Under the pieces are notes generated by a model that saw nothing but the letters and a program-made list of their open reading frames with translations, made no database searches and was not told the origin of the DNA. This document shows positions 3,043 to 64,000 of a DNA stretch of 64,000 nucleotides, piece by piece. The stretch comes from an uncultured Candidatus Saccharibacteria bacterium. GTDB lineage: Bacteria; Patescibacteriota; Minisyncoccia; JAHISW01; Tagabacteraceae. The stretch is taken from positions 34,376 to 98,375 of the forward strand of contig CAZRMW010000001.1 of assembly GCA_964601305.1 (NCBI GenBank), given 5' to 3'. The translations under genes and the position numbers were made by a program. The first letter of the stretch is position 1; every line of letters starts with the position of its first letter.

Positions 3043-6000
3043 CTAAAACAACCCCTCCGGCGATGTGGTAGCTGTGTTTTCTATCCATTCAATAAGAGTT
3101 GCGGTGATAGCCGAAAGACCATCTCCAAGTACGCCGAGTAAATTGTTTTCAAAAGTAACATTACTTAAACTCGTCGTAGAATTTTCTACTACAACAGCTG
3201 CCTTCGTACCCCACGGCCCACTGTAGTTATGCTCTTCAAATCTCGCATTTTCTATACTCACATTTTCAGAATTTACAGCACGAATCCCATGAGGATAATT
3301 ATTTTTAAATAAAGCATTTGCTATCTGCGCTGTAGACCCTTCTAGCAAAATACCCGCTTTGTCTCTTCCTCCAGACATTACGCTCCCCGCATACTTCATA
3401 GTAAATCCACTTGCCACAAGAGATCCAGTTTCGGAAATATTTATCCCAGCAAACTGCCCAGCTTGAGGCATCGTAGATGTTTCATCGTTGTTAGAATCCC
3501 CACTTATCTCATCGTCATAAATACTTGTAAAAATTATGTCACTCGGATTCTGTCCATCTATTACAAAATTTCCGTTTACATTTAATGTTTTCTCTCCACC
3601 CTTTATTACCACTCCGTTTTCAATAGTTAATTGCGAAGATTCTACTACCGTCGGAGTCTCATATCCATTTAAATAATAAGGTATATCATTTGATTTTAAA
3701 GTTTTTGTTGAATTAGTATTAGTTAAATTTCCCCAAATATTAATGGAGTTGGGATTGTTATTTGACCCACTGTTTCCAGAAAAACTTCCCAGCTCTCCCG
3801 AGGAATAAATTGCACCTCCAGAATTAGAAGTAAAAGTATTGTTATTTGCGATTGTATTTGAATTGCTTAAATAAAGTCCTCTTAAATTTTCTAAAAAAGT
3901 ATTATTGTTTATTGTCGGCTCTCCATTTTCTGTGTATACACCATCAGCCTCATTGCCCTCAAAAACAGAGTTTGCAATTTGCGAATTAGAATTTTTTAAT
4001 CTCAAACCATAAACTTTTGAATATTTAAAACTGGAATTAGATACAGATATTTCTGGCCCCCAAGAGACAAGCAATGATTTATCAAAAGAGTTGTTATAAT
4101 ATTTTCCACCATAGCTAAAATTAGTATATTCAAAAATAGATCCATTTTCTGCATTTTCGTTTATGCAAATACCAAACCAATCTCCAGGATTAGGATTTTC
4201 TTGAGCACTCGTAAAAGCTATTGGCTCACTCTCTGTGCCTTGTGCCAAGATTTTTCCCAGAATATTAAACCCCGAATCTCCATTAAACTTAATTTCAACT
4301 CCAGGCTCTACGGTTAATAAAACTCCACTTTCAACAACTGCGTTTATATTGTCCACCAACACTGGATTGTTTAGTCTTCTTATTGTTAAATTTCTATCTA
4401 TATTTTTATTTATAGTTAGTATGCTATTTACACTATTTGCAAATTTCGGAGTACCTTTGTTTCCTAAAAAATCATTGTTTGTGTACCAGTTTTCTGTATC
4501 GTATCTTTCCATTGTATATTTATCTGTATCTCCTGCAGGCCACGCCCCCTCTGGTGTACTATCTATTGTTGTAGTAGCTGTCGAAGTAGCTTGCACCAAA
4601 ACTAATCTCTCTCCACTATTACTAAGCCCATTTCCAAAAGACCCTATATAATCTGCTTCCACATCTGGCACTGAGGTATCGTCCGTTCTTTCTATCAAAT
4701 AATACTCGCCCGACCCAAGAGTACCTGACAAATTTATATATGGTCCGTTGTCTGTTTCTGAAAAAAGTACCCAGCCATCCAAATCTATTCCGTTTTCTGT
4801 ATTATTAAAAAGTTCTATCCATTCATCGTAAGCCGAGTTGTCCGTACCCGCCCATGCGATTTCGTTTATTAAAATCGAATGCTCTGCAAAAACTTCTTCA
4901 GGTGTTTCAGGTGTCGTGCTTGCTGTTTCTGGTGTAGTCGTAGCAACTTCTGAAGTTGAATCTTCCTCTGGAAGTTCAACCTCGCTAATTGAGTCGTCTT
5001 CTATAACAGGCGCCTCCTGAGGATTGTTTGGGGAAGAAACACTTTTTGTTGCAACAACTATCGAGGTCGAACCTCTATAGCGAGGTTCAACCTCACTAAT
5101 TAAGTTGTTGTCTTTTGTGTCCGCCATTGTTTCCACAACTGCAAAAACAGCAGAAACCGCAGTATATTCTTTTTCCTGTTTTTGTGTAGCCCTTTGATTT
5201 GCTTGTTTTTCATCTTTTTCAAAGGTTGAATCTTTATCTTGAAAATTTAGCTTTGAAGTTGTACTTCCTTCAGGAAGTCCAACTTCGTTAATTAAATCAT
5301 TCGTTTGATCTTTTTTTTCTTTGTCAAAAACATCTTTAATTTTGTTGCCAACATTTTTTATTGCTCCCCAAAACCTTGAGCCACTACCCGGTAAAAAATC
5401 TTCTGCAATTGTTATGAGCGCTGTTTTAGGCACAGGCGGTTTTTCTAGTAACGATTCGTCGTTTCGAGCCTTCTCTACTTCTTGAAAGAATAAATTAATT
5501 GCCCCTGCCACGGATATGACTGCCTCACGAGATAAACGGTTCCAGTAGCCCTGGAGGATCGGTTTGTAATCTTCATTGTCGTCCTCCAACTCATACTCTG
5601 CCAACTTCTTTTCACCGTCTTTGTCCCATACCTCCTTTGTTCTTGCCAATTTAAAATAACTTCCATCTTTATCAACACCAAAGCCATATTCATCTCCATC
5701 TATTATTTCTGGCTTATTATACCTTTCATAGCCCTCGCCATTTGCAGTATCTTTACTTAAAAAATAATTATTAGAATAATTTGCTAAATAATCAAAATAT
5801 TCTTCTATGCTCTCAAGAGAAGCTGGCTCATAACTATTTAAGCTATCCGCAATTTTAAAATTTTCTATATTAAATTGTTTTGAAAAATTTTCAAGGGGGC
5901 TATCTCCAGGGTGTGGGTCATTTCTGGTGTGTTCTGGCACGGCCATATCTTCTAGTAAATGCAGAGTAAATCCAAGAGTATAAAACGCGTCTTTTTCATT

Positions 6001-10647: not shown

Positions 10648-13027
10648 TCTCTGACTCCACTTCGCTGGCTGGTCTACCATATTTTATAGCTGACAATTCT
10701 TTCACCTTGCTTGCCACCTGAGAACTAGTTTCTTCAGGAGGAATTGTTTGTATATTAAAAGGCTTTGTAGATTCGCCACCAACTAAAAGTTTTAGATACG
10801 CATTGTAGTTTGGTATGTTTGTTAAGTCTTCTCTTTCAAAAACCGGCTCAAACATTTTTGCTAAAAATTCTGCATCTTCTTCTCCCACTCTAAATACAGC
10901 AAGTGATCCAACGTTTCCAAAAACAGCTTTTTTTATTTCTTCGTCTAGCTGGCCAATAAATTGGTGTGCAATAGTAAGATCTAGTCGATACTTTCTTGCT
11001 TCAGACAAAATCATAGCAATAGAGTTTGTGGTAATATTTTGAAATTCGTCTATGTAGAAGTAAAAATCTTTTCTTGTGCTTTCTGGTATATCTACGCGCG
11101 ACATTGCTGCCATAAAAATTTTGCCCACAAGAAGCATACCCAAAAGATTTGCGTTTAATTCTCCAAGTCGGCCTTTGGATAGGTTTATTAGTAAAATTTT
11201 ACCATCATCCATTATTTCTCTGAAGTTGAGCGATGTGTTTTCTTGCGCTAAAATTGGCCTCATTATTTCGTTGCTTAAAAATGTATCGAATTTGCTGGTG
11301 ATATAAGGAACAATATTTGCAAGAGCTGCTTCTCCGCCAGCTTTCCCCGCAGTTTCTTTCCAAAAATTATTTACTACCGGATTGTTACTTTTTGAAAGTT
11401 TTAGTTCACGATAATCTTCATCTGTTAACACTCTGGAAATTTCTAAAAGTGTGTTACCGCTCTCTGGATCTTCCATCACAAGGAGTGTGGCGTTTCTAAA
11501 ATATTGCTCAAACATAGGGCCACCCGCCACAGACATATCGTAAAGTTTATCAAAAATCTCTAAAAGTTCGTTTACTATAAAAGTTTTCTGCTCCGGATTC
11601 TTTTTGTCGTACTCAAGCATATTTAATCCAAAAGGTCTTCTTGTGTCTGCAGGATTGAAATATACTACATCTTCCCATCTTTCTTCAGGAATTTGACCTA
11701 AAACATCTTCGAGGTCAGAACCGTGTGGATCTATAAAACACACGCCATGCCCTGCTTTTATATCTTGAAGAACCATATTTTTAAGAAGGGCAGACTTACC
11801 AGTACCAGTCTGACCAATTGTATAAAAATGCCTTCGCCTATCGTCTTCTGAAAAATGTATGTCTGTTTCTTTTCCTCTGAAGAAATTTTTTCCAAGTACA
11901 ACGCCTTTTTGTTGTAAACTTACAGGAGGCTCTGTATTTCTTGTTTTTGAAAGTTTTACTTTTGGAGCAGAAAGACCATAGGAAGGAAAATGAAAAATAC
12001 TTGTAAGCTCTTCTGTGTTTAAATGAAGAGATTCTTTTTCATTAAACAATCTAAAAGAAAAATTATGGAAAAAGTTTTTTAACACAGATCCCTTTAAATC
12101 GTTTGCAACAAAAGCATTGCCCATTACAGAAGAATATTGAGAAAAAGCGCTTTTAACTTGGTTTAAAATACTTTGTGATCGTTCTGTAGTTTGTGAAGAA
12201 ACAACTAGCCGAATATTTGCCCTCATTATTGGCTTCGCAATTTTTTTATTTAAAAAACTTAAAATTTCTGTATTTGCTTCTCTTTCCATAGAAGAAAGCG
12301 CAGACACACCATCTTTGTTTGAATGAATAGTACCCCCCGTGGCCACTTTAAGAAACGAATGTTGCAAACTTTCCCCACCTTTTAAAGCAGATTTTACTGG
12401 CTCTCCAGAATTAATGAGGTTAATAGATTTTTGTACACTTTTTTTAAAATTTGTTTCTTGGGGATCTATTATTATTTGAAGAGAGGCTCCTTCTTTATCT
12501 CTTTCTAAATCAGAAAAAGTGTTCACTACCACTTCAAGTGGGCTTGTTTCTAATTCTTCGTATGTTTTTATTGGCAACACATCGCTAGTTTTTAGTTTTA
12601 GTGTGGCCCCTGCGTTTGGCGCGCCATATTTAAAAATATTATAATCCGCTTTTTCTTCGCGAATTTCTGCTGTTGGGAAAACGGCACGGACTTGATTTTG
12701 AAAAACAGAAATTTTGTCTCTCGGTACAGCCACATAAAAATTAATCTCATTTTCTGTAGACGGAGAAACTATTTCTAGAGAAAAATAAGAACCTAAGTTT
12801 AGCATTCCCATATAAAACTGTTCCATTTTAGAAACAAGCTCTTTGAAAGGCTTTTCTTCTTTTTGGCTTCTTGGGAAACTGACTTCGTACAAAGAAAGAT
12901 CGAGCGCATGCCTTAGATCAGAATCTCTTTTTTGCCTCAAAACAAAAAACAAAAGAAGTCCTATTAAAATAAAAAATAGAGGAAGTATAACAAAAGGACT
13001 AAACAAAAGATCTAATGATTTTGACAT
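10586..13027 (-). CDS. VirD4/TraG/TraD-like type IV coupling-protein-family ATPase with N-terminal TM anchor and about 400-aa unknown N-domain
   Basis: Walker A IGQTGTGKS followed by CFIDPHGSD; C-terminal ARKYRLDLTIAHQFIGQL...VFGNVGSLAVFRV matches the TraG-D_C (TraM-recognition) region; TM helix near the N-terminus. Confidence 0.7.
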   Translation of the reverse strand: MSKSLDLLFSPFVILPLFFILIGLLLFFVLRQKRDSDLRHALDLSLYEVSFPRSQKEEKPFKELVSKMEQFYMGMLNLGSYFSLEIVSPSTENEINFYVAVPRDKISVFQNQVRAVFPTAEIREEKADYNIFKYGAPNAGATLKLKTSDVLPIKTYEELETSPLEVVVNTFSDLERDKEGASLQIIIDPQETNFKKSVQKSINLINSGEPVKSALKGGESLQHSFLKVATGGTIHSNKDGVSALSSMEREANTEILSFLNKKIAKPIMRANIRLVVSSQTTERSQSILNQVKSAFSQYSSVMGNAFVANDLKGSVLKNFFHNFSFRLFNEKESLHLNTEELTSIFHFPSYGLSAPKVKLSKTRNTEPPVSLQQKGVVLGKNFFRGKETDIHFSEDDRRRHFYTIGQTGTGKSALLKNMVLQDIKAGHGVCFIDPHGSDLEDVLGQIPEERWEDVVYFNPADTRRPFGLNMLEYDKKNPEQKTFIVNELLEIFDKLYDMSVAGGPMFEQYFRNATLLVMEDPESGNTLLEISRVLTDEDYRELKLSKSNNPVVNNFWKETAGKAGGEAALANIVPYITSKFDTFLSNEIMRPILAQENTSLNFREIMDDGKILLINLSKGRLGELNANLLGMLLVGKIFMAAMSRVDIPESTRKDFYFYIDEFQNITTNSIAMILSEARKYRLDLTIAHQFIGQLDEEIKKAVFGNVGSLAVFRVGEEDAEFLAKMFEPVFEREDLTNIPNYNAYLKLLVGGESTKPFNIQTIPPEETSSQVASKVKELSAIKYGRPASEVESEIRQKYLKTHQQDEGEEDLGK

Positions 13028-13393: not shown

Positions 13394-13440
13394 AAGCTTA
13401 TTATATCACAAATTCAAACACTTTTGGTATATCTACACCA

Positions 13441-13467
13441 AAATAACGGAGTTGAACTCCGTTATTT
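13441..13467. terminator. palindromic hairpin AAATAACGGAGTTGAACTCCGTTATTT (repeated at 17431..17458)
   Basis: Perfect inverted repeat plus T-run downstream of the 13477..14673 gene; second copy 4 kb away. Confidence 0.5.
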
Positions 13468-13476
13468 TCTGTTATT

Positions 13477-16665: not shown

Positions 16666-17034
16666 TTATTGTATTTTTCTCCTGTAAAGAATGGAAAAAA
16701 AGATTGAATAACCGAAGAACACCCCAGACATAACCCAAGCAAACAAAAATCCAATACTATCTACGGGTCGAGGAAAAATAAAGCCCAAAAAAAGAAACAC
16801 AATACCAACCACTAAGGTATACGACGCCTGCCAAAACCAATCGTCAAGTTTTGCTTTTTTGTCCTCATTCAAATCACCTACTCTTATTTCTCTAAACTTA
16901 AACTTGTCTTCCACAGCACCCTCCTTTTGTGTTTTTATTAAAATTTCAATTCCCATGCTATAGTAAAGCATCTGTCCCCTTTTCCCACACATCACACAGA
17001 CAGGGCCTGTGCATATAAGTAAACAAGTATACAA
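16666..17034 (-). CDS. small membrane protein (possibly the C-terminal half of a frameshifted gene with 16958..17275)
   Basis: 122-aa ORF with 2-3 TM helices; overlaps 16958..17275 by 77 nt in another frame; Cys-rich N-terminus CTGPVCVMCG. Confidence 0.4.
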   Translation of the reverse strand: MYTCLLICTGPVCVMCGKRGQMLYYSMGIEILIKTQKEGAVEDKFKFREIRVGDLNEDKKAKLDDWFWQASYTLVVGIVFLFLGFIFPRPVDSIGFLFAWVMSGVFFGYSIFFSILYRRKIQ

Positions 17035-17275
17035 GCGAAAGAAAAAATGGAATAAAAGTAAAAATCAAAAAAAATGAACTATAACTATTAAAAAATAAGA
17101 AAAAAAGATCTACTAACAAAAAAATAAAACCAATAAAAAAAGAAAAAACTCCATTTGTTAATGCACTTAAATATTGGGTATCAATTTGCCTTATTTTTTC
17201 ATCTTTCAAATAATCAAAACTAAATTCTTTGAAAGAAAAATTTTTTCTTGCTTTTAACAATTTTTGGTAAAACAC
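16958..17275 (-). CDS. small membrane protein, paralog of 17556..17906
   Basis: N-terminus KLLKARKNFSFKEFSFDYLKDEKI resembles KILKYNKFRDFGLEDFNKEEAGI of 17556..17906; conserved upstream promoter repeat. Confidence 0.4.
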   Translation of the reverse strand: MFYQKLLKARKNFSFKEFSFDYLKDEKIRQIDTQYLSALTNGVFSFFIGFIFLLVDLFFLFFNSYSSFFLIFTFIPFFLSLVYLFTYMHRPCLCDVWEKGTDALL

Positions 17276-17320: not shown

Positions 17321-17395
17321 ACTTCCCTTTTTGTAGTTTTCTCTAAATTTTATACCACAAATTGTTTTTCAACACAATGGTAACCTATCTAGTGC
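17321..17395 (-). promoter_or_regulatory. conserved promoter repeat (minus strand: -35 TTGTGT, 17-nt spacer, TGG-TATAAAAT extended -10)
   Basis: About 70-nt repeat nearly identical to 17922..17998, containing TATACCACAAATT on the plus strand (reverse complement AATTTGTGGTATAAAAT). Confidence 0.45.
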
Positions 17396-17430
17396 TATAG
17401 CAGATGTCGTGTTCCATTTTTAAAATAACA

Positions 17431-17548
17431 AAATAACGGAGTTCAACTCCGTTATTTTAAATATTAGCTAATATGGTGAAAATCACCAGAGATTTCACCA
17501 TATTAAACAAAAAACCGCCAGGCCTTTTCAGGTTCTGGTGGTTTAAAT
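17431..17548. repeat. composite of three hairpins: AAATAACGGAGTTCAACTCCGTTATTT palindrome, conserved 54-nt ATATGGTGAAA hairpin, and terminator
   Basis: Repeat copies of 13441..13467 and 16583..16636; T-runs on both strands. Confidence 0.45.
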
Positions 17549-17555
17549 TTATCTG

Positions 17556-17906
17556 TTATTTTTTCTTGGGGCAAAAATGACAAGTTTCTGCACCTCTTTT
17601 TACTTCCCCTTCGCAAGTAGTACATATCTTTACTTTTTTGTTTTGATCTTTGACTGTATACCTCAAATAACATCCTACAAAAAAAAGAAAAATCGAGAAA
17701 ACAAGATTGGTGATACTTATCGCCCATATTACCCGCATACTAAAATCTTGTAGGAATAAAAATCCACTTCCCACACATACATACAAATACACAGCCACGA
17801 GAATTCGAAATATGCCAGCCTCTTCTTTGTTAAAATCTTCAAGCCCAAAATCCCTGAATTTATTATATTTCAAAATCTTCTTTCCTATTAATTCTGGCAT
17901 TAGCAT
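17556..17906 (-). CDS. small membrane protein with C-terminal Zn-ribbon (CTTCEGEV...CHFC)
   Basis: 116 aa, 2 TM helices, four C-terminal Cys in CxxC...CxxC arrangement. Confidence 0.5.
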   Translation of the reverse strand: MLMPELIGKKILKYNKFRDFGLEDFNKEEAGIFRILVAVYLYVCVGSGFLFLQDFSMRVIWAISITNLVFSIFLFFVGCYLRYTVKDQNKKVKICTTCEGEVKRGAETCHFCPKKK

Positions 17907-17921
17907 AGTACCCCCTTTTTC

Positions 17922-17998
17922 CCAATTTTTTGTATTTTTAAATTCTCTAAATTTTATACCACAAATTATTTTGAATTACAATGGTAACCTATCCACTG
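17922..17998 (-). promoter_or_regulatory. conserved promoter repeat (minus strand: TTGTAA, 17 nt, TGG-TATAAAAT)
   Basis: Sigma70-like -35/-10 with extended -10; duplicate of 17321..17395. Confidence 0.45.
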
Positions 17999-18099
17999 CT
18001 ATCGCTTTAAATAGGTTCCATTTTCTATCCTCTCAATTTCTCACGCTTGTCCGCCTTTGGAGGAATCGTAGTATTTAGAGAGAATAGAAAAAATTAAAT

Positions 18100-18141: not shown

Positions 18142-18179
18142 TTAAAATCAGCGAGACTAGCGAGGTTCAACCTCACTAG

Positions 18180-19199
18180 TTAATTTGTTAACTCCGGCTG
18201 ATAAAACTTATTTAATTTTGTTTTTAATTGTTTTACTGCAACTATTTCATTGTCTAACAAATACACCTTTAAAACTAATCCCCGCATAGTCTCCTCTGAA
18301 AAATTTTGATCGAAGATAAAATTACCCAAACTATACGCTATCACCCCTCCATTATAACTTTCTATTTCTTGCACAACATGCGGATGGTGCCCTACTACTA
18401 TCTTCGCCCCATTATCTATTGCTGTCCTAGCTAAATATTTTTGTCTTTCATTAGATTTGTTTTTATATTCCTCACCAAAATGAAAAGACACAACAAGAAC
18501 ATCTACACCTCTACTTGCACGCTTTATAATATCTTCAAAATTATTTTTTATAGATAAAATTCCTGAACTATCAGCACCCGCCAAAAACCAATCCGCCCCT
18601 ACATCAGAAAACCCAACAAAACCAATTTTAACTCCGTCTCTTTCTAATATTTTTACAGCACTAGCATCTTCAAAATCCATCCCTCCTCCAACAGGCAAGA
18701 TCCCTTTGTTTTTTAACCTAAAAATATTTTCCTCAAACGCTTCCTTCCCCCAATCTGCAATATGGTTATTAGCAACAGACAGCACATCGAACCCAGCTTC
18801 ATAAAGTACATTGAGCACATCCGGATTAAACTTAAAAGAATAGACACTTCCAACATCTTTACCCGCAAGAGAAATTGGTCCCTCTAGATTTCCAAAAGCA
18901 ATGTCGGCCTCTTTTAAAAAATCAACATTGTTAAAAAGAAAAGAAAAATCACCATTAAAATTTTTAGATATTGACTCTTCTACTCCCCTGCTAAGCATAA
19001 TATCACCAACAAAAACAAGTTCCACACTTTTTGTGTTTTTAAGAGTAGCGGTATTGTTTTTGTTTGAAAAATAAAAAAACGAAGACGAACCAGACACCCT
19101 ATTAAAATCACCTAAAAAATAAAAAACACTCATTGGAACAAAAAAACCCAACAACAACACAAAAGCCCCCCAAACTATTTCTTTATTTTTTATTTCCAT
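18180..19199 (-). CDS. CapA-family metallophosphoesterase (poly-gamma-glutamate/capsule biosynthesis-type)
   Basis: VGDIMLSRGV, LSVANNHIADWG and GHHPHVVQ metallophosphatase motifs typical of CapA/PGA_cap; N-terminal TM. Confidence 0.8.
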   Translation of the reverse strand: MEIKNKEIVWGAFVLLLGFFVPMSVFYFLGDFNRVSGSSSFFYFSNKNNTATLKNTKSVELVFVGDIMLSRGVEESISKNFNGDFSFLFNNVDFLKEADIAFGNLEGPISLAGKDVGSVYSFKFNPDVLNVLYEAGFDVLSVANNHIADWGKEAFEENIFRLKNKGILPVGGGMDFEDASAVKILERDGVKIGFVGFSDVGADWFLAGADSSGILSIKNNFEDIIKRASRGVDVLVVSFHFGEEYKNKSNERQKYLARTAIDNGAKIVVGHHPHVVQEIESYNGGVIAYSLGNFIFDQNFSEETMRGLVLKVYLLDNEIVAVKQLKTKLNKFYQPELTN

Positions 19200-22002: not shown

Positions 22003-22399
22003 TTTTCATTCCTTTTTGTGTTGTTATGTTGTGAAAGTCCGAATAGCTTCCATAAAAAAACTACCATTAAAATATATATTTTGTCAAATTACTGTACTAG
22101 AAGGGTACATAAATAACACTTATCGCTACACCGAAGACCGTCTTCGATGTAAATTACATAGACACCATTTCTTTTATTTTCATCAAATCAGCCACAGACC
22201 AACTTTTTAAAAATTTTTCATACTCTCTTTTGCTTTTAAATTGATCTAAAATAATATCTGTTCCAGAAAGTATCCAATCTTCATAATCTTTGTATAGAAA
22301 ATGTTTGATTCTACATCGACATCGGGTGTCGACGCAAGTGGTTTTTGCAAAATAAAAAGCCACCCTGTCGCCAGAGTGGCCATATAAACCAAAAACTTA

Positions 22400-26501: not shown

Positions 26502-27611
26502 TTAAAGAGTAAATTTATCTAACCAGCTTTTCATACTAGATTCTTCTGTTCTAACAATTGTAGGAATATCATCTACTTTTTCTTCATTCTCTTTTATCTC
26601 GTCTCCCACCTTTTCCTTTTCTTGCTCTGGTTCTTGCTCGGAACTTAGACTGTCTTTTTCTTGAGGTTGAACCTCCTTTGGCGGTTCAACCTCGCTAATT
26701 GAATCCGTCGTCGTTAGAATCTCTTCAATCTCCCCTGTTTCTTGAGGCACAGTACCTTCAGCAACAACAGCAGCACCTACTTTCATTAAAAAGTTTTTTA
26801 GATCATCCTCAGAGAAAAACTCCATAGAAATTTTTTTAACAGGTCCCTTTTTCTCAACAGAAACTCTTGTTCCCAGAGCATCTGAAAGTTTTCTTTCCAA
26901 ATTGCCTGCTTCTGGATCTTCTCTTCTCTCCAACTTTATTTTAGCCTTAGTTTTATTTTTAAGAATTTCACGCGCGAGATGCTCTGTAGCCCTCACATTC
27001 ATTTTTCTAAAAATAATTTCTTTGTATAATTCTTTCTGATCATCTTCGTGCTTTATTAAACTTAAAAGTGGCCTCGTGTGCCCTTCTCTAATAAGCCCTG
27101 CTTTTAGCCCTTCTTGCATATCTTCCGGCAAGCTCAAAAGTCGAATAGTGTTTGAAACAAATTCTCTACTCTTACCTACTTTTAGGCCAACTTCATGATG
27201 GCGCATTTTAAAATTGTCCACCAATTGCTTAAAAGCTACAGCTCTTTCTATTGGACTTAAGTCTTCTCTTTGTATATTTTCTATTAAAGCAAGTTCTAAT
27301 TTTACTTGATCTGAAGGTTCTTCTCTAATAATTACTGGCACTTGAGTAAGCCCCGCAATTTGAGACGCACGCCACCTTCTTTCTCCTGCAATAATTTCAT
27401 ATTCTATTATAGTGCCTGTTGGCACTTCTTTTTCTCGACGGATAACTACAAGTGGCTGCAAAACGCCGTATTGCCGAATAGATTCTGAAAGCTCGTTTAG
27501 CTTGTCTTCATTAAAAATACTACGAGGCTGAAAAGTATTTGGCTTTATTTTGTCTACTTCAACAAAAAAAACCCCGCTTTCTTTTCTTATTCTTGGAAGT
27601 TCGTTGTTCAT
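26502..27611 (-). CDS. parB: ParB/Spo0J partition protein with acidic low-complexity C-terminal tail
   Basis: GERRWRASQIAGLTQVPVIIRE ParB box; start at MNNELP (27611); tail region contains an inserted palindromic element (TDSISEVEPPKEVQPQ). Confidence 0.85.
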   Translation of the reverse strand: MNNELPRIRKESGVFFVEVDKIKPNTFQPRSIFNEDKLNELSESIRQYGVLQPLVVIRREKEVPTGTIIEYEIIAGERRWRASQIAGLTQVPVIIREEPSDQVKLELALIENIQREDLSPIERAVAFKQLVDNFKMRHHEVGLKVGKSREFVSNTIRLLSLPEDMQEGLKAGLIREGHTRPLLSLIKHEDDQKELYKEIIFRKMNVRATEHLAREILKNKTKAKIKLERREDPEAGNLERKLSDALGTRVSVEKKGPVKKISMEFFSEDDLKNFLMKVGAAVVAEGTVPQETGEIEEILTTTDSISEVEPPKEVQPQEKDSLSSEQEPEQEKEKVGDEIKENEEKVDDIPTIVRTEESSMKSWLDKFTL

Positions 27612-27667
27612 TGATTTTATTATACAAAAATTGACCAAACGAGGCAAATTTTATATTATAAATTTAG

Positions 27668-29629: not shown

Positions 29630-29660
29630 AAAGCCCTTGCCTTATTGGCAAAGGGTTTTT
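29629..29660. terminator. terminator hairpin AAGCCCTTGCC-ttatt-GGCAAAGGG plus T-run
   Basis: GC stem plus TTTTT immediately after the stop of 29312..29629. Confidence 0.5.
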
Positions 29661-29674
29661 ATTATACAAATACA

Positions 29675-31750
29675 ATGAAATATTATATTTTTACATTTGG
29701 GTGTGGCGCCAACCACGCTGACAGTGAAAGAATCGCCAGAAAATTGAAAGCCCTCGGCCACAAAAAAGCAGTTTCTTCCAAAGAGGCTAGTTTAATAGTG
29801 CTCAATGCCTGCTCTGTTAGAAAATCTGCTATAGATAGAGTTTATGGCAAAGTAAAAAATCTAAAAAACAAGCAAATTATACTAGCAGGCTGTCTCCTTG
29901 ATTCAGATAGAAAAAAATTAGAAAAAAAAGTAAAAGCTATTTGGCATCCAGACGAATATTTCGATTTATCCCCCATAAACGAAACTTCTTTTCGTGCGCT
30001 TATACCAATCACAAAAGGTTGTAATAATTTTTGTTCGTACTGTGCTGTGCCCTACACACGAGGAAAAGAAAAATCTCGCCCAGCAAAAGACATAATCAAT
30101 GAAATTAAAGAATTAATAAAAAATAATTATAAAGAAATATGGCTGTTGGGACAAAATGTAAATAGCTATAAATCTGGGAAAACAAATTTTCCAAAACTTC
30201 TTCAGAAAATAAACAAGATTGAAGGTAATTTTTGGATAAAATTTACTTCCCCTCACCCAAAGGATTTCTCCAACGAATTAATACAAACTATAAAAAAATG
30301 TGAAAAGGTTACCAACTACATAAACCTGCCTGTTCAATCTGGGGACAATGAAATTTTGAAGAAAATGAATCGAAAATATACACGCCAGCACTACATTAAG
30401 CTTGTAAACAAAATTAAAAAAGCTATTCCAGATGTAGCAATTTCTACAGATACTATCGTAGGATTCCCTGGAGAAACACGCACTCAATTTAAAAACACTC
30501 TAGATTTGTACAAAAAAATTAAATTCGATATGGCTTTTATTTCACAATACTCCCCTCGCACAGGCACCGTATCCGCACGAACTATGAAAGACAACATAAA
30601 ACACATAAAAAAAGAAAAGCGCGACAAAGAGCTTACAAAAGTATTAGCCAAATATTCGCTCGAGAAAAATAAAAAATTAGTTGGGCAAACTATAAAAGTT
30701 TTAATTGACTCACAAAAAGACACTAATTTTTTTGGCCGCACAGAAGGCAACAAAATAGTTAAAATAAATAAAACTGATTCTATAAGTATAGGAAAATTTG
30801 TAGATATAAAAATAACAAAAGCTACCTCTTGGAAGCTGGAGGGAGAAATCGCTCCTACAAAAATTATAGTAGTTTTGGGCCCCACAAGCTCTGGAAAAAG
30901 CGACTTAGCTGTAGATATAGCTCTTCAATTCCCTTCTGAAATTATTTCTGCAGATTCTAGGCAAGTTTATAAACACATACCTATCGGTACAGGGGCTATA
31001 ACCAAAAAAGAAATGAAGGGTATTTCCCATCATTTGCTAGGTTTTGTAAATCCCAAAAAAACATATACTGCAATAGATTTTAAAAAAGATGCAGAAAAAG
31101 CTATAAAAGAAATTCTAAACAAAAACAAAATACCAATAATATGTGGTGGCACAGGGTTTTATATACAAACACTTTTAAGTGGCAATAATTTACCAAAAGT
31201 AAAACCAAACTGGCCTCTTAGAAAAAAAATGGAGAAAAAAACAGCAGGCCAACTTTTTAAACAACTTCAAAAGCTCGACCCCAAACGCGCTAAAAACATA
31301 GATTCAAAAAACAAGCGGCGTTTAATTCGTGCTATCGAGATTGCTATCAAATTAACGAAGTCGGACTTCGATAGTTCACTACCGAAATCCGACTTCAATA
31401 GTTGGGATGTGCTGTATTTAGGTATAGAAAGAAAAAGTGGTAATTTAGAAAAACTTATCAGAAAAAGAATTTTGGGACTTATAAAAAGAGGGCTTTTGGC
31501 AGAAGTAAAAAATTTAAGAAAGAAAAAAGTCTCCTGGAAAAGAATAGACGAACTAGGTTTTGAGTATAAATACCCAGCTCAATATATCCGCGAAGAAATA
31601 AATAAAGAAGAAATGGTAGAAAAAATACTTACAGGAAATAATAAGTACGCAAAAAGACAGATGACTTGGTTTTTAAAATATACCCCAAAGACAATTTGGG
31701 TAAAAAATTCTAAGGAAGCTATGAAATTATCTAAAAAATTTTTAGACTAA
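29675..31750 (+). CDS. miaB-miaA: fusion protein: MiaB-like radical-SAM methylthiotransferase (MTTase-N, radical SAM, TRAM) fused to MiaA tRNA dimethylallyltransferase
   Basis: Start MKYYIFTFGCGANHADSE (MTTase N-terminus Cys), LNACSVR, AGC, CNNFCSYCAVP radical SAM, TRAM region; then IIVVLGPTSSGKSDLAVDIAL (P-loop), ISADSRQVYKHIPIGT, HHLLGF = MiaA. Single continuous 692-aa ORF. Confidence 0.8.
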   Translation: MKYYIFTFGCGANHADSERIARKLKALGHKKAVSSKEASLIVLNACSVRKSAIDRVYGKVKNLKNKQIILAGCLLDSDRKKLEKKVKAIWHPDEYFDLSPINETSFRALIPITKGCNNFCSYCAVPYTRGKEKSRPAKDIINEIKELIKNNYKEIWLLGQNVNSYKSGKTNFPKLLQKINKIEGNFWIKFTSPHPKDFSNELIQTIKKCEKVTNYINLPVQSGDNEILKKMNRKYTRQHYIKLVNKIKKAIPDVAISTDTIVGFPGETRTQFKNTLDLYKKIKFDMAFISQYSPRTGTVSARTMKDNIKHIKKEKRDKELTKVLAKYSLEKNKKLVGQTIKVLIDSQKDTNFFGRTEGNKIVKINKTDSISIGKFVDIKITKATSWKLEGEIAPTKIIVVLGPTSSGKSDLAVDIALQFPSEIISADSRQVYKHIPIGTGAITKKEMKGISHHLLGFVNPKKTYTAIDFKKDAEKAIKEILNKNKIPIICGGTGFYIQTLLSGNNLPKVKPNWPLRKKMEKKTAGQLFKQLQKLDPKRAKNIDSKNKRRLIRAIEIAIKLTKSDFDSSLPKSDFNSWDVLYLGIERKSGNLEKLIRKRILGLIKRGLLAEVKNLRKKKVSWKRIDELGFEYKYPAQYIREEINKEEMVEKILTGNNKYAKRQMTWFLKYTPKTIWVKNSKEAMKLSKKFLD

Positions 31751-39507: not shown

Positions 39508-40725
39508 TTATCTCACAGAAGAAATTCCTTTTAATTTTAAAATAATATCTGGCAAAATTTTTAATACATAGTCTACTTCTTTTTTTGTAGTCTCTTTGCC
39601 CATCGTAAATCTAAGCGAACCATGAGCATATTCATGTCCCATACCAATCGCACGTATCACGTGTGAAGGCTCCAAACTATCCGAAGTACACGCCGAGCCC
39701 GTAGAGCAAGCCACGCCCTTAGCATCAAGATATAGCACCATTGCTTCTCCCTCCACACCACGTACAGATATATTTACATTATTAGGAAGCCTATCTTCTC
39801 TTGAACCATTTAAAACACTGTTTGGTATCGTTTTTAATAATTTATCTATAAAATAATCCCTAATTCCAATAAGTCTTTTTGATTCTTTTTCTTTATTTTT
39901 TTGAACTAATTCAAGCGCTTCTCCAAAACCCACAATTCCAGATACATTTTCCGTACCAGACCTTAAGCCCATTTCTTGCCCACCGCCTACGACCATCGGA
40001 TCTATTTTAATTCCTCTTTTTTTATAGAGCATTCCTACACCCTTTGGCCCATATATTTTAGAACCATTTAAAGTCATTAAGTCTACACCCAATTTCAAAA
40101 CATTTAGATCCAAATAAGCCGGTGCTTGCACAGCATCTGTATGTATCAGTGGAGTTTGCAGGTTGTAGGTTGTAGGTTGTAGGCTTTTTTTGAAATTTCT
40201 GATTATTTTTGCGATTTCACGAATTGGCTGTATAGCACCAATTTCATTGTTTGCATACATTATAGAAACCAAAACAGTCTCTTTTCTTAAAGATTCCTTT
40301 AATTGTTTCAAATCTACAATGCCATTTTTATCTACATTTAAATAAGTAATTTCCCAGCCACTTTTTTCTAATCTTTCACAAGCATGAAGCACAGCGTGAT
40401 GCTCTATTTTTGACGTAATAATATGCTTGACACCCTCTCTGTTGGAAGTCGGACTTCCAACAGAATTGGCTATGCCGAAAATTGCTAAATTATCACTCTC
40501 TGTGCCACCGCCAGTAAAAATAATCTCGTCTGAATGGGCGTTTATTGTCTGTGCCACTTTTAATCTAGCCTCCGAAATTGCTTTTTTGGCTTCCCTGCCT
40601 TCTTCATAAATAGAAGATGGATTGCCAAAAACATCGCTAAAAAACGACTCCATTGCTTTTTTAACTTTTGGATCTAAATATGTGGTAGCTGAATGATCTA
40701 AATATATCCTTTTATCTTTATTCAT
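39508..40725 (-). CDS. iscS: cysteine desulfurase (class V aminotransferase, IscS/NifS)
   Basis: YLDHSATT, LNGSKIYGPKGVGMLY (PLP-Lys), SGSACTS (catalytic Cys loop); start at MNKDKRIY (40725). The upstream 33 codons of the track ORF are a repeat element. Confidence 0.85.
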   Translation of the reverse strand: MNKDKRIYLDHSATTYLDPKVKKAMESFFSDVFGNPSSIYEEGREAKKAISEARLKVAQTINAHSDEIIFTGGGTESDNLAIFGIANSVGSPTSNREGVKHIITSKIEHHAVLHACERLEKSGWEITYLNVDKNGIVDLKQLKESLRKETVLVSIMYANNEIGAIQPIREIAKIIRNFKKSLQPTTYNLQTPLIHTDAVQAPAYLDLNVLKLGVDLMTLNGSKIYGPKGVGMLYKKRGIKIDPMVVGGGQEMGLRSGTENVSGIVGFGEALELVQKNKEKESKRLIGIRDYFIDKLLKTIPNSVLNGSREDRLPNNVNISVRGVEGEAMVLYLDAKGVACSTGSACTSDSLEPSHVIRAIGMGHEYAHGSLRFTMGKETTKKEVDYVLKILPDIILKLKGISSVR

Positions 40726-40761
40726 AAAAAAATTATACGATTTTTTTGCATTATTGGCAAA

Positions 40762-40790
40762 CAAAAAAGCCCTGTGCAAGCAGAGCTTTT
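40762..40790. terminator. hairpin AAAAAAGC-cctgtgcaagcag-AGCTTTTT
   Basis: A/T-flanked stem between iscS start region and the end of the thioredoxin-fold gene. Confidence 0.35.
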
Positions 40791-40816
40791 TGAGTAAGTT
40801 TGAGCGAGGTCCAACC

Positions 40817-41410
40817 TCACTCATTTAAAATTTTGTCGATTAGAGCGGCCGTTTTATCGACAGTTTTAACCGGATTATTATAAAAATTATACCGCACAAC
40901 CCCCTTTTTGTCGACAATGACAAGGTGGGGCCAACCTCCTAACCCATACGAAGCTGTCGCCTTTATAACTCCAGACCCATGTTGTTTTTTGCTAACAATC
41001 AAGACCGTCGATAAAAAAGGTCCAAACTTTGTCTTAAACCCTTCAAACTCTTGAGGGTTTTTTGATGTCCACGGCACGCCCACAACTTTCACATCCTCGC
41101 GCGACTCATACTTTTCCGCCAGTTTATTCAGAACTTTGACCTGCTCACGGCAGAGAGGCGCACCAGGTCACCAGAAAGCCAAAACAGTAACACTCCCTTT
41201 AGAAAACTCGGAGAATTTCACATTGTCTCCGGTATCAATATTGGTTGCCGTAAAATCCGGCGCCATTTTGTCCACTGCGGAATTTGTTTCAACAACAACC
41301 ACCGGAGTGTCCTCTTCCACGGAAGTATTGAAGGCACCTGCTGTGCCAACAAAAAGAAGTGAGAAAATCGCCATCGCCAGAATCGTTAGAGTTAAAAGTC
41401 TCGTTTTCAT
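40817..41410 (-). pseudogene. disrupted thioredoxin-fold (TlpA/AhpC-TSA-like) secreted protein gene, GC-rich
   Basis: N-terminal part (signal peptide ...APDFTATNIDTGDNVKFSEFSKGSVTVLAFW) stops at an in-frame TGA exactly where the redox motif is expected (FW-TGA-PGAPLCREQ). C-terminal part (VKVVGVPW...GWPHLVIVDKKGVV) is in another ORF. GC content clearly above its neighbours. Confidence 0.5.
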
Positions 41411-41470: not shown

Positions 41471-42121
41471 TTAAAAATACTCTTGTAAATAGCACTTTCT
41501 ATGAACATCCAAAATACCATTTTTCTTTATTGCTTCGTAATGTTTTTTTGTACCATATCCTTTGTGGCAGTCGAAACAATATTCTGGATAAATTTTGTGT
41601 AGTTTTTTCATTTTTCTATCTCTTTTTACTTTCGCCATTATTGAAGCAGCAGAAATAATAGAAATTTTTTCATCTCCCTTTATAACTGTTTTTTGATTAT
41701 AATGTTTCGGCGCCTTTAACCCTCCGTCTAATAAAACTAAACAATTTTGCGTCGACATCGGGTGTCGATGTAGATGTAGTTTTCGCAAAGCGTGATTTAA
41801 TGCTAGTTTTGTAGCTTTTTGTATACCAATTTTGTCTATAACTTTTGGACCCACCATTGCCACGCTATAGCTAAAATTATTTTTTATTATTTCAAACCAA
41901 TCTTCTCTTTTTTTTTCAGAAAGCTTTTTAGAGTCTTTTATACCTTTCAAAAATTGAAAATTGAGTTTTGAAAATTTATTGAAAATTGAAAATTGAAAAT
42001 TAGAAATTGTTGTTGCAACAGCAGCAACTGCCACCGGTCCGGCCAGTGGCCCTCTCCCCGCCTCGTCTATTCCAACAATAATGCATTCTTTTTTATCCTT
42101 CATATTCTTCATTAACTTCAT
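41471..42121 (-). CDS. rnhB: ribonuclease HII
   Basis: GIDEAGRGPLAGPV, DSKKLS, ASIMAK motifs; contains two apparent in-frame DNA-repeat insertions. Confidence 0.85.
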   Translation of the reverse strand: MKLMKNMKDKKECIIVGIDEAGRGPLAGPVAVAAVATTISNFQFSIFNKFSKLNFQFLKGIKDSKKLSEKKREDWFEIIKNNFSYSVAMVGPKVIDKIGIQKATKLALNHALRKLHLHRHPMSTQNCLVLLDGGLKAPKHYNQKTVIKGDEKISIISAASIMAKVKRDRKMKKLHKIYPEYCFDCHKGYGTKKHYEAIKKNGILDVHRKCYLQEYF

Positions 42122-42847: not shown

Positions 42848-44608
42848 TTATTTGAGCTTCTCTATCTCTTTGCTAAGATATTTCTTCATTTTTACTACAG
42901 TGCTTTTCAACCCTTTTAGAGAATTATTTATCATTTCTTTGTCTTCAGATTTAAATTTTTGTTTTTTCAAACTCTTTTCTAAATCTTCCATATCGTTTTC
43001 CATAAGTTTGCTCAGTTTTTTTATATCTCTTCCAACAATTATTTTATATGCGCTCCTTTTCTCTTTTTCAGAAACATAATACCAAGCCACAAAAGATCCA
43101 ACAGAAGAAAAAATTAAAACTAAAATAATAACTATCTCAAACCACCCGAAATCCACAACACCCAAAGAAATTATTGTTTTTGCTGTAATTTTAAAAGATA
43201 TTGGCTCTGTATTGTAGCTTACGCCACCCCTATCGTCTCTTGATGAAATCAAAAACTTATATTCTCCCCCCTGAAACGGCTCTTCTATTACAACTTCCCA
43301 ATTGCCAACCTTATTGCTCTCTGAAAAAGTAGTAAAAATTATCTGATCATCTTTTAAAATCTTTACATCCACAAACCCATTTGGAACAGCCTTTCCAGAA
43401 GCAAACAAAAACTCGCCTCCAGAAACTTTTTTTGTTATAAAATCTACTACCGGTTTTTCAAGAGGAATTATTTCAAACTTAATGTCATCTTCCACGCTGT
43501 TTCCTGCCTTATCGAAAACACGCACCACTAAATCGTGCTCCCCTGGAGATTGAGGAGGCAACAACAAAAACTCATCTGTAGATTCTACCGCCTCTTTTCC
43601 ATCAATAAAAATCAAAGCGTGAGAATAACCAGAAAGACTATCTTGTGTTTTAAACTCTATCTCGGGGACAGGATTGTCGCTAACAAACGAACTGATTTGC
43701 GTTTCAAAAGGGAGAGGTGAAGTTGTGTCTATGGCAATTTTATAATGAGTCACCTCTCCCCAACCTTTATTGTTTTTAAATTGTACATGTACATAGTGTA
43801 TTCCTTCACTCAAAACTCCTATATTTTTACCTGTAAAAAGTTCTTCTTCGGAAGTGGTAGGCTCTGACGACACTTTTGCGTTTACCTCTACTGCAACTTT
43901 TATTACATCTTCAGGAACATCCCACAAAACTATTGTATTTCCTTGGTGGTTGTACCATTTCCCATGCTCAGGATAAAAAGGAACTCTAACAACCGGAGCC
44001 TCGGGCGCATCTACTGCTTTTACAGCTACTCGTTCAACTCTTTGCGGAAGCTCTTCTTTTTCAACCTCTTGCGGAACAAAAGGGATTTCAGCTTCTATAG
44101 TTTTTGCGCCAATTTTTATTTTTGTGCCTGCCATTTCAGAAAGCACATTTGTGCCTTTTCCATCGTTTGCAGTAACCACAGATTCATCAAAAGAAATGTT
44201 TGCAACACCAGTACCAACAACCTTGAAGTTTATTCTAACAATTTGAAGTGCCCCACCAGAGACACCCTTTGCAGTGCCCCCGATAAAACTTACTCGCCCC
44301 AGCTCATTGTTTATTTCTGGTTCGTCTATCCAAAAATTAAAAACAGAACTATTTTTATCTGTACTAACAACCTCTAAAATATTGTTCGAAAAATTTACTG
44401 TAGACTGAACCGCATTTATAAAAACATCGCTTGTATCTACTTTTACATCTACAGAAAATTCCTGTCCACGCGCAAAAGTCTTCCCTTCTGGAAGCAAATA
44501 AAGAGTAGATGCATTAGCAGAAGGCGCAAACGCCAGAATAAAGAATAAAGAATAAAGAATAAAGTTGCTTAACTTTAAAATATTCATAATTCGTGATTCA
44601 TAATTCAT
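42848..44608 (-). CDS. type-I membrane-anchored surface protein with N-terminal cohesin-like domain and Ig-like middle region
   Basis: Signal peptide; GQEFSVDVKVDTSDVFINAVQSTVNFSNNILEVVS...VRINFKVVGTGVANISF resembles cohesin; C-terminal TM plus basic tail; N-terminus paralogous to 58607..59602. Confidence 0.55.
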   Translation of the reverse strand: MNYESRIMNILKLSNFILYSLFFILAFAPSANASTLYLLPEGKTFARGQEFSVDVKVDTSDVFINAVQSTVNFSNNILEVVSTDKNSSVFNFWIDEPEINNELGRVSFIGGTAKGVSGGALQIVRINFKVVGTGVANISFDESVVTANDGKGTNVLSEMAGTKIKIGAKTIEAEIPFVPQEVEKEELPQRVERVAVKAVDAPEAPVVRVPFYPEHGKWYNHQGNTIVLWDVPEDVIKVAVEVNAKVSSEPTTSEEELFTGKNIGVLSEGIHYVHVQFKNNKGWGEVTHYKIAIDTTSPLPFETQISSFVSDNPVPEIEFKTQDSLSGYSHALIFIDGKEAVESTDEFLLLPPQSPGEHDLVVRVFDKAGNSVEDDIKFEIIPLEKPVVDFITKKVSGGEFLFASGKAVPNGFVDVKILKDDQIIFTTFSESNKVGNWEVVIEEPFQGGEYKFLISSRDDRGGVSYNTEPISFKITAKTIISLGVVDFGWFEIVIILVLIFSSVGSFVAWYYVSEKEKRSAYKIIVGRDIKKLSKLMENDMEDLEKSLKKQKFKSEDKEMINNSLKGLKSTVVKMKKYLSKEIEKLK

Positions 44609-44626
44609 AATTCTTTTGTATTAAAA

Positions 44627-63005: not shown

Positions 63006-64000
63006 TTATATTGTTTCTGGAGTTGTTGTAGAAACTGGTTCCTCAACAACATGCTCTTCGTATTCGCAACTTAGATCATCTTCTGTTGCGCTTTCATCGT
63101 GATTTAAGGCATCTGGATCCATACAGCCCAAAATCAGCTCGGGTTCTTGCTCCTGAATTAATTCAGCCTGCCCCGTTAAATCCGTAGGATTCTTCGGGGT
63201 ATTTAATTCAGTAGCAGTAGTCGTGGAGGTCGTTCCTTCAATTAACGAAGTTGGACTTCCCACATCCTGCGGTGTGTGAACTCCAACTTCAACAATTCTT
63301 GTTGTTGTCCCTACATTCCCCGCTTGATCTTCAGCAATAAAAGTAATTACATAAGTAGTTGTGCTAGAAGTATCTAAGCTTAATTCGTTCGGATACATCT
63401 CTTCTCCACCATCAATGCTTACTTTATACCCAAGGTTGTCGTTTACATTGTCTGTTACTGTTGCCCCCATATCGCTATATGTGCTACCTACTTCTATTTT
63501 TGCAGGGTTATTTCCAAGGAGAATTATGATTGGAGACTCAACGTCAACACTGTCTGTATTTTCATTGATTATTGATTCATTAGATATTGATTGATCATTG
63601 ATTGTTGAAGATTGATCATTTTTAAGCATTCCCTTCAACTCTGCCAATTCCTCTTTATTCAAACAAACTTCTCCACCCTCTTCCCCAATACATATTTCTT
63701 CTCTAGCCAAAATTCTATTAGCTACAAAAGCTCCGTTTAATTCTTGATTTGTTATAAATTCTTCCACTGATCCACCAAGAGAAAGCGAGTTTAATTCATT
63801 TTGAAGAACTTCTATCATCTCCTGTTGCTCTTTTATAGCCTCTAAGTTAAGGGCTGTTAATTTTTGATAATCTATCATCTTATATCCTTGCATATCCTCA
63901 TAAACCAATTCTGGGAAAAGCACTTCCACTTCCTGGGCAATCAAACCTGTTTGGCGACCATCCCCTAAAAATTCTGTGTGAGAATTTGTTTTATCCCATT
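63006..64000 (-). CDS. surface protein (5' end outside window) containing a phage tail-fibre/endosialidase-type intramolecular chaperone (peptidase S74-like) segment followed by a DUF5011/Ig-like domain
   Basis: GLIAQEVEVLFPELVYEDMQGYKMIDYQKLTALNLEAIKEQQEMIEVLQNEL matches the S74 chaperone helices; PIIILLGNNPAKIEVGSTYSDMGATVTDNVNDNLGYKV...AEDQAGNVGTTTRIVEV is DUF5011-like. The reading frame stays open upstream of the track's start to the window edge. Confidence 0.5.
   Translation of the reverse strand, partial: WDKTNSHTEFLGDGRQTGLIAQEVEVLFPELVYEDMQGYKMIDYQKLTALNLEAIKEQQEMIEVLQNELNSLSLGGSVEEFITNQELNGAFVANRILAREEICIGEEGGEVCLNKEELAELKGMLKNDQSSTINDQSISNESIINENTDSVDVESPIIILLGNNPAKIEVGSTYSDMGATVTDNVNDNLGYKVSIDGGEEMYPNELSLDTSSTTTYVITFIAEDQAGNVGTTTRIVEVGVHTPQDVGSPTSLIEGTTSTTTATELNTPKNPTDLTGQAELIQEQEPELILGCMDPDALNHDESATEDDLSCEYEEHVVEEPVSTTTPETI

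Follow-up and report, generated by a model that had tools for sequence, protein, structure and literature searches.

The window analysed here, a stretch of 64,000 nucleotides of contig CAZRMW010000001.1 (positions 34,376 to 98,375; GenBank assembly GCA_964601305.1) from an uncultured Candidatus Saccharibacteria bacterium, is AT-rich (~34% G+C), exhibits a negative GC skew throughout and carries a dispersed family of short palindromic hairpins, which are the subject of this study. The genes hosting them, identified by Pfam, encode a 1133-residue β-helix/LTD surface protein, whose charged linker harbours three hairpin doublets, a giant Ig-like surface protein—its gene being the 3' part of that for a protein of at least 1841 residues—as well as CapA, ParB, a MiaB-MiaA fusion and IscS. 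Seven of the 11 loci lie inside reading frames and the remainder at gene ends (Table 1). An earlier description of the same DNA, made from the sequence alone and referred to below as the original prediction, had listed many of these copies, and each of them was found where it had been placed or only a few bases off; the peptides it quoted (LISEVEP, SISEVEPPKEVQPQ, LINEVGLP, SPTSLIE and KLTKSDFDSSLPKSDFNS) are likewise right. Missing from it were three second units in decayed form (4952-4964, 5255-5267 and 63278-63290), the copy inside iscS and the two terminator-like copies. Its placement of two further copies in non-coding DNA, just 3' of capA and 5' of iscS, had to be revised, since both overlap stop codons, namely the TAA of capA and the TGA of the open reading frame (ORF) 40817-41092.

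Table 1 Hairpins of the family, and the type-B hairpin and transposase remnant described in the text, in the 64-kb window (CM, covariance model)
Feature	Position	Strand	Context and translation	Evidence
Inverted doublet, second unit decayed	4952-4995	-	In 1133-residue β-helix/LTD surface protein; reads DDSISEVELPEEDSTSEV	CM match 4961-4993, E=0.0016
Best-preserved inverted doublet, AATTAGTGAGGTTGAACCTC-GCTATA-GAGGTTCGACCTCGATAGTT	5053-5104	-	Same 1133-residue surface protein; reads LISEVEPRYRGSTSIV	CM matches 5072-5104 and 5053-5085
Inverted doublet	5255-5298	-	1133-residue β-helix/LTD surface protein; reads LINEVGLPEGSTTS	CM
Single full palindrome AAAATAACGGAGTTGAACTCCGTTATTTT, terminator-like	13438-13470		Directly 3' of Cys/Met-metabolism gene	CM, 37.6 bits; terminator scan
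Single full palindrome AAAATAACGGAGTTCAACTCCGTTATTTT, terminator-like	17428-17460		Intergenic	CM, 39.8 bits; terminator scan
Single hairpin AACTAGTGAGGTTGAACCTCGCTAGT	18152-18184	-	capA 3' end; TAA of the foot is the capA stop codon	CM
Inverted doublet	26653-26703	-	Hypervariable acidic C-terminal tail of ParB; reads SISEVEPPKEVQPQ	CM
Inverted doublet	31347-31406	+	Variable loop in the MiaA part of the MiaB-MiaA fusion; reads TKSDFDSSLPKSDFNS	CM
Single perfect palindrome TCTGTTGGAAGTCGGACTTCCAACAGA	40435-40467		Inside iscS; insert of 5-6 residues (VGSPTS), low-confidence loop	CM
Single hairpin	40796-40828	-	Overlaps TGA stop of ORF 40817-41092; within annotated N-terminal extension of iscS	CM
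Inverted doublet	63237-63300	+	Within the minus-strand gene of the giant Ig-like surface protein; reads VEVGVHTPQDVGSPTSLIE	CM
C-terminal remnant of type-B RAYT-like transposase, 51 residues, 55% identity	22163-22315	-		tblastn
Type-B hairpin CATCGACATCGGGTGTCGACG	22314-22334		Abuts type-B remnant; second window copy at 41750-41770	

At three mismatches or fewer, the consensus AATTARCGARGTTGRACYTC matches the window 12 times as against 0.06 expected, none of the 100 dinucleotide shuffles having reached 12. The core is a 13-nt palindrome, GARGTY-N-RACYTC, present in 12 exact matches with relatives differing by one or two mismatches beside them, and the complete hairpin consists of this conserved 13-nt top (GARGTY-S-RACYTC) set on a variable, compensating lower stem of 5-10 bp. 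A covariance model recognised 14 units with E<0.05 at 10 loci, and about four more decayed units were recognised by eye; the units measure 21-35 nt and the doublets 44-64 nt. Doublets occur at six loci of the window and also outside it (L007, L057 and L069 among the loci collected from other genomes and metagenomes). Those of the window consist of a unit bearing the foot AATTA(R)(Y), a spacer of 5-18 nt and a second unit, after which comes GATAGTT, AATAGTT or a decayed version. All six have G at the centre of the first unit and C at that of the second, so that both units represent inverted copies of one dimer type. The full unit of the relatives forms a perfect 29-35-nt palindrome, such as CCAACTATCGAGGTTGAACCTCGATAGTTGG, and the foot differs from genome to genome—AATTARC in the window, CAACTATC in L071, ATCTTAC in L072 and L073—while the top is common to all. 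The density in the window is approximately 0.2 units per kb, with none found over the 22-kb stretch from 41 to 63 kb. At the gathering threshold, Rfam detects only three tRNAs in the window, i.e. the hairpin is covered by no known RNA family, and a likeness to the tRNA T-arm and to the CIRCE operator was dropped because both the loop length and the sequence differ. Two scans of viral contigs yielded zero and one motif match, respectively, indicating that the element is not phage-borne.

The original prediction had seen two arm variants differing by compensatory changes, and this covariation is real. In 35 aligned units, drawn from the window as well as from loci collected for their protein homology, with the flanks not used for selection, the top five pairs are demanded by the way the copies were selected, whereas the lower ten are free. 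Standard pairs occupy 79% of the stem cells, in comparison with 28-43% if the partners are slid, and there are 100 cells with changes on both sides versus 42 in shuffles, the observed value having been reached by none of the 500 shuffles. The arms are thus under selection for pairing, with strong covariation in the unselected flanks. As for the mismatches, G.T and A.C are balanced (29 versus 22 overall, and 9 versus 10 on the mRNA-sense strand, all of these being small numbers), which gives no sign of a constraint acting on RNA from one strand and fits a palindrome maintained at the DNA level. The readings as parS, matS or any other symmetric protein-binding site were ruled out, as the lower stem varies freely yet stays complementary.

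The hairpin DNA is translated in three registers, xEVxP/xEVxL, KSDF and GS(P/T)TS. Five units of the window (starting at 4971, 5082, 5274, 26663 and 26681) share the first of them and are found in acidic or proline-rich linkers. Codons worked by hand show that most frames of the core are open; the centre-G form flanked by T and A (GTTGAAC) gives TGA in one register, and all the copies read in that register have, on the coding strand, a C at the centre. One frame of the foot, AATTAA or AATTAG, contains a stop, and it is this TAA that serves as the stop codon of capA. The codons AGG, CTC and GAC, rare in a genome of 34% G+C, are used exactly where the arms need pairing. With regard to the terminator scan, the copies at 13440-13468 and 17429-17459 combine a G+C-containing stem with a T-run at a gene 3' end, this T-run pattern being lacking from the intragenic copies.

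Comparison of orthologous sites, proposed in the original prediction as a check, bears out the presence of real small in-frame inserts that fall in loops or disordered linkers. Independence of the frame is seen in MiaA, in the loop located between RRLIRAIEI and DVLYLGI: the window and L057 both contain a doublet there, read in the KSDF register (with SKSDFDAISKSDF in the latter), L061 has the single unit GAGGTCCGACCTC in another frame, read as GEVRPP, and L058 retains a decayed trace, PKFNF. The same palindrome thus occupies one loop in different frames with compensated arms, which means DNA-level selection or renewal and not a protein motif. The MiaA of the window is fused to the radical SAM methylthiotransferase MiaB, the isopentenylpyrophosphate (IPP) transferase forming with it one frame of 701 residues (29645-31750), and this fusion is kept in three related genomes (630-678 residues).

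IscS of the window has 5-6 more residues than a solved cysteine desulfurase, placed between a helix and a strand, and modelled as coil with a predicted local distance difference test (pLDDT) score below 50; mapping onto a predicted structure, a further check that had been proposed, therefore puts this insert where it would be tolerated. The corresponding loop is filled in four of 22 homologues—the window (GSPTS), P0127 (GSPTSHSKCGKSDF), P0129 (SLRTSHNKRAKSNF) and P0140 (GGRTSH)—whereas at least nine lack an insert there, among them the three most similar sequences. The DNA behind P0127 (L069) exhibits a perfect inverted doublet at the site, GTGGGAAGTCCGACTTCCCAC ... GTGGGAAGTCGGACTTCCCAC. The net insert amounts to 18 nt for the single unit and 30 nt for the doublet, both being shorter than the element. 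It should be noted that the deposited IscS of 438 residues begins with an extension of ~36 residues (40711-40824), absent from the homologues and of low confidence in the model. Translation probably begins at the Met of MNKDKRIYLDH, which would place the hairpin upstream of it in the 5' leader. The capA 3' end is occupied also in L058/L071, where the hairpin lies between capA and a transposase gene. In ParB, the doublet is situated in a tail whose length differs across all the homologues, i.e. the site is permissive and not diagnostic of insertion. ParB of this lineage (26502-27647 in the window) possesses, after the dimerisation region, this long acidic tail, whose end is a conserved C-terminus of the form W-x-x-x-F-(S/T)-(I/L/V).

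In the syntenic loci of the nearest relatives, labelled Patescibacteria or Tagabacteria and having ParB 72-74% identical to that of the window, a gene of the Pfam family Y1_Tnp is present beside capA or dprA; it is designated here type A. Two independent routes tie this gene to the hairpin. The first one started from the motif: scans of whole collections gave 15 loci from the GTDB representatives and 41 from JGI metagenome contigs, mostly with single copies, and since ~35 exact matches are expected by chance in the genome collection, only the matches from the candidate phyla radiation (CPR) with extended palindromes are meaningful. A search by tblastn found a Y1_Tnp gene in five of the 41 metagenome loci (L025, L048, and L027, L030 and L031, the last three being one sequence). 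In L025 and L027/L030/L031, 8-35 bp separate the matched motif from the start of the transposase gene; for L048, the motif that was matched is ~6.5 kb distant and it is a related hairpin that precedes the gene start by ~50 bp. The second route started from the protein: 12 of the 14 covariance-model matches in L071, L072 and L073 (62 kb in total) are within 160 bp of the gene, following a common layout with a first hairpin 15-40 bp ahead of the start, another ~180 nt into the gene at a fixed site, sometimes a second internal one, and one 2-15 bp after the stop codon. In L071, the type-A gene stands between an acetyltransferase gene and capA, downstream of a PMT_2 gene; in the PMT_2-capA stretch of the window, the intergenic hairpin and that at the capA 3' end flank an unrelated small membrane-protein ORF. 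In L072, three more hairpins of the family are clustered within 70 bp (10805-10873) just downstream of the type-A gene, and its 585-kb contig holds a second paralogue of the gene (L048).

A second transposase, type B, only 28% identical to type A, was found in L057 flanked by hairpins of a different kind, CCATCGAC-N7-GTCGATGG, in inverted orientation. Such a pairing of a transposase subtype with its own hairpin type is the pattern known from repetitive extragenic palindromes (REPs) and their REP-associated tyrosine transposases (RAYTs). The type-B hairpin family and an intact gene occupy positions 18020-20015 of L057, and the remnant in the window has its first ~184 codons deleted.

The type-A protein consists of ~235 residues with a long C-terminal extension. 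It matches Pfam Y1_Tnp (PF01797) with 28-30 bits against a gathering score of 23 and conserves both the HUH-type motif NH(Y/F)HLL and the tyrosine motif Y(I/V/L)HLNP. The best match in the Protein Data Bank (PDB) of its AlphaFold model (pLDDT 70) is 4ER8, the Escherichia coli RAYT with a REP hairpin (E 1e-4), followed by IS608 and ISDra2 TnpA; the fold search alone was informative, as a sequence search of the PDB with the transposase profile was nearly empty (E 0.26). The family is large, with 7982 of the 8000 scored candidates passing E 1e-10 and those named by source belonging to Patescibacteria, Paceibacterota or Wolfebacteria. Among the best 120 homologues, 63 contain EV[EQGK][PL] at the first internal site and 51 an xSTS[IL]-type peptide at the second one; these are the two translations of the hairpin, and wherever the DNA was available (L025, L031, L058/L071, L072 and L073) it contains the hairpin. 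The view that no mobilising gene is in sight finds no support, since a RAYT-type Y1 transposase in related genomes flanks itself with the hairpin.

Based on the above results, it appears probable that the hairpin is an element similar to REPs and to REPINs—their inverted doublets—belonging to a CPR clade of RAYT-type, IS200-like Y1/HUH transposases. The enzyme would bind the folded hairpin on single-stranded DNA, as in the solved RAYT and IS608 complexes, and would cut and rejoin beside the hairpin foot, whereby hairpins or doublets could be copied to new sites. With the core mostly free of stops and the unit short, insertions in multiples of three would be tolerated in surface loops, disordered linkers and gene ends; the surviving inserts would be translated as xEVxP, KSDF or GSPTS peptides, and the copies at gene ends might act as terminators or stop-codon donors. 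Mobilisation by the transposase is what these patterns suggest, and the genome of the window presumably has, or recently had, a type-A copy of its own. What had been predicted of the family itself—dispersed palindromes under selection at the nucleic-acid level, placed in frame in unrelated genes and also between genes, with the inserts in loops or disordered linkers—holds.

Several observations weigh against this assignment. Neither a type-A gene nor a remnant of it was found in the 64 kb by a profile run against the six-frame translation, or in the 11.5 kb of extra flank beyond the window ends, and the latter contains no further hairpins. The sole NCBIfam match of the protein is NF047646 (REP_Tyr_transpos), at 33-40 bits against a cut-off of 80, so that from its sequence the type-A protein appears to form a clade distant from the one the RAYT model describes. 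The GTAG/CGTC tag of REPs is absent, the feet being AATTARC, CAACTATC, ATCTTAC and TGTGG. Classical REPs are usually lineage-specific, and here the same top recurs across very distant CPR lineages, including contigs labelled Saccharibacteria of 29-54% G+C. With protein identities of only ~70% to the nearest relatives, no exact boundary or target-site rule could be established, and a comparison of strains, 99.6-100% identical and the same at the copies compared, revealed no insertion polymorphism. A host function of the hairpin could, moreover, account for the lasting occupancy of the MiaA and IscS loops. Most of the loci in the window are also intragenic, an unusually high share for REPs, which typically lie outside genes; intragenic REPs are nevertheless known from other genomes (PMC3733652).

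The possibility of a host function leads to the view of the hairpins as immobile host structures—terminators, mRNA stabilisers or protein-binding sites—kept by selection, with the transposase-like gene merely employing this hairpin to regulate itself. Two copies do score like intrinsic terminators and several lie exactly at gene ends, the MiaA loop and the capA 3' end stay occupied, with compensatory changes, between genomes at ~72% ParB identity, and the top is common to distant CPR lineages. This explanation is nevertheless unlikely, given that other copies sit in essential genes without T-runs, where termination would harm, and that it is the closest homologues whose IscS loop is empty and more distant ones whose loop is filled; three relatives, moreover, have nearly all their copies at the transposase gene and not at other gene ends, and the second transposase subtype with its distinct flanking hairpin fits the enzyme-substrate pairing of REPs and RAYTs. 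The shortness of the net inserts in IscS would fit remodelling in situ, and the pairing of perfect arms with decayed partners in the doublets points in the same direction, namely to spread or renewal without transposition, by template switching or gene conversion between copies and by quasi-palindrome correction keeping the arms complementary. Such a process would, however, leave unexplained why the same 13-nt top occurs at unrelated sites and why a Y1 transposase gene is flanked by it in several lineages, and it would still require a source copy and a delivery step; it seems rather improbable.

A signal for DNA uptake in natural transformation had been offered in the original prediction as an alternative, with a view to the nearby dprA, which indeed belongs to the conserved neighbourhood; known uptake sequences are, furthermore, established to occur in genes in several frames and to act as terminators when paired in inverted orientation. 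The density of ~0.2 per kb is, however, far from the ~1 per kb of such signals, and copies are lacking from the 22-kb stretch and the 11.5-kb flank, whereas in the relatives they cluster at a single gene, that of the transposase. Every copy has both arms, making the palindrome and not an asymmetric core the unit, and a top common to very different lineages would not discriminate self-DNA, so that this alternative is rejected as very improbable. Likewise rejected as very improbable is an ordinary conserved peptide motif or low-complexity repeat with the DNA similarity as a by-product. The single xEVxP/xEVxL register of five units in acidic or proline-rich linkers and the fixed position of EV[EQGK][PL] in about half of the 120 transposase homologues would suit it, but three registers are in use for one and the same DNA, which occurs also outside genes, the MiaA loop has KSDF in two genomes and EVRP in a third, and the rare codons AGG, CTC and GAC sit where the arms stay paired. 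The doublets were also considered as internal-deletion derivatives of the transposase gene, with its first site joined to the second one; this is not claimed here, since the peptide similarity is accounted for by the common lower stem.

Returning to the REP-like system, one extension of it is put forward more tentatively. The clade carries its own target hairpin in the reading frame, at two fixed positions and in about half of the 120 homologues, and this might, although it is rather doubtful at present, serve self-recognition—autoregulation, or inclusion of the gene in the mobile unit—with the hairpins as an active source of short peptides inserted in housekeeping-enzyme loops and giant surface proteins of CPR bacteria. 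If true, the REP system would be a source of protein variation in minimal genomes, and the self-carried hairpin could inform the control of these domesticated transposases; a literature search found no description of a hairpin inside the reading frame of a RAYT. The same search found no paper linking REPs or RAYTs to CPR/Patescibacteria. This agrees with the expectation that such elements had not been described for CPR-like genomes, and a REP-like system appears new to CPR, whereas in-frame insertion as such is not, intragenic REPs including dimers having been known since 2013 (PMC3733652); the novelty is consequently moderate. The genomes of CPR/Patescibacteria are small, gene-dense and usually called repeat-poor, and a REP-RAYT-like system would offer a concrete enzyme-substrate pair in them, for an enzyme family of thousands of members annotated merely as 'transposase'. 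It would extend translated REPs, a rare phenomenon, to a new phylum, and the hairpin family explains odd short inserts as well as annotation artefacts, such as the N-terminal extension of iscS and the stop codon of capA.

Some further repeats were observed in the window. A 63-nt direct repeat, 87% identical between its copies (17339-17401 and 17943-18005), precedes two small membrane-protein ORFs on the minus strand (16958-17275 and 17556-17906), each of which is followed by a hairpin of the family; it may be a duplicated promoter or leader. Inside iscS, an array of four heptanucleotides TTGTAGG (40156-40183, 95% match) encodes LQPTTYNLQ in a second variable loop of the enzyme, for which LQATSYKLQ is found at the same place in other CPR IscS proteins and the segment is absent from close homologues; one 7-nt unit gained or lost would shift the frame. 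More tandem arrays of 7 nt are located at 41950-42009 and 44535-44613 (AAAATTG x9, AGAATAA x4.3 and ATTCATA x4.6), and heptamer repeats seem unusually common in this window.

With respect to the known systems, the DNA uptake sequences (DUS) of Neisseria and the uptake signal sequences (USS) of Pasteurellaceae resemble the CPR hairpin as over-represented short sequences lying in genes in several frames and forming terminators as inverted pairs; they differ in density, distribution and the palindromic unit, and no link of the hairpin to uptake was found. The parallel drawn in the original prediction with the Rickettsia palindromic elements (RPEs) applies to behaviour, i.e. to selfish-looking palindromes that unrelated proteins tolerate as peptides inserted in frame, and not to membership of that family, from which the hairpin differs in size and sequence. 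Elements of the RPE-1 type are ~100-150 bp long and known only from Rickettsia, whereas the units and doublets described here are of 21-35 and 44-64 nt, are associated with a Y1 transposase family and reside in Patescibacteria. The ends of IS200/IS605 elements such as IS608 and ISDra2 have subterminal hairpins to which a Y1 HUH transposase binds in single-stranded DNA; a similar recognition is proposed in the CPR case, and these structures rank second among the matches of the protein model. The CPR hairpins are, however, dispersed far from a gene that is apparently low-copy, which is the pattern of REPs and RAYTs and not that of a multi-copy insertion sequence.

Another counterpart is provided by intragenic REPs from the study of Di Nocera et al. 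(2013; PMC3733652), who described GTAG REPs in Opitutus terrae and CGTC REPs in Rickettsia conorii inside known genes, more than half of the intragenic inserts being dimers and the inserts being judged tolerated and not functional. The intragenic CGTC repeats of R. conorii were equated there with RPE-4 and RPE-6, and the CGTC REPs have no dedicated transposase (PMC3733652). The small units and dimers placed in frame within known genes are common to both cases, the sequence class and the phylum differ, and the CPR hairpin has a candidate transposase.

In comparison with the REP/REPIN-RAYT systems of Proteobacteria, represented by E. coli—including the structure 4ER8—and Pseudomonas, the CPR hairpin lacks the GTAG/CGTC tag and has most of its loci in the window inside genes and its top common to distant lineages, and the CPR protein, below the RAYT cut-off with its ~235 residues and long C-terminal extension, holds one or two hairpins at fixed positions of its frame. 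Both are alike, on the other hand, in a short imperfect palindrome present in many copies as singlets and head-to-head inverted doublets, in the hairpins on both sides of the transposase gene, in transposase subtypes with different hairpins, in the Y1/HUH fold and in the persistence of copies at orthologous sites.

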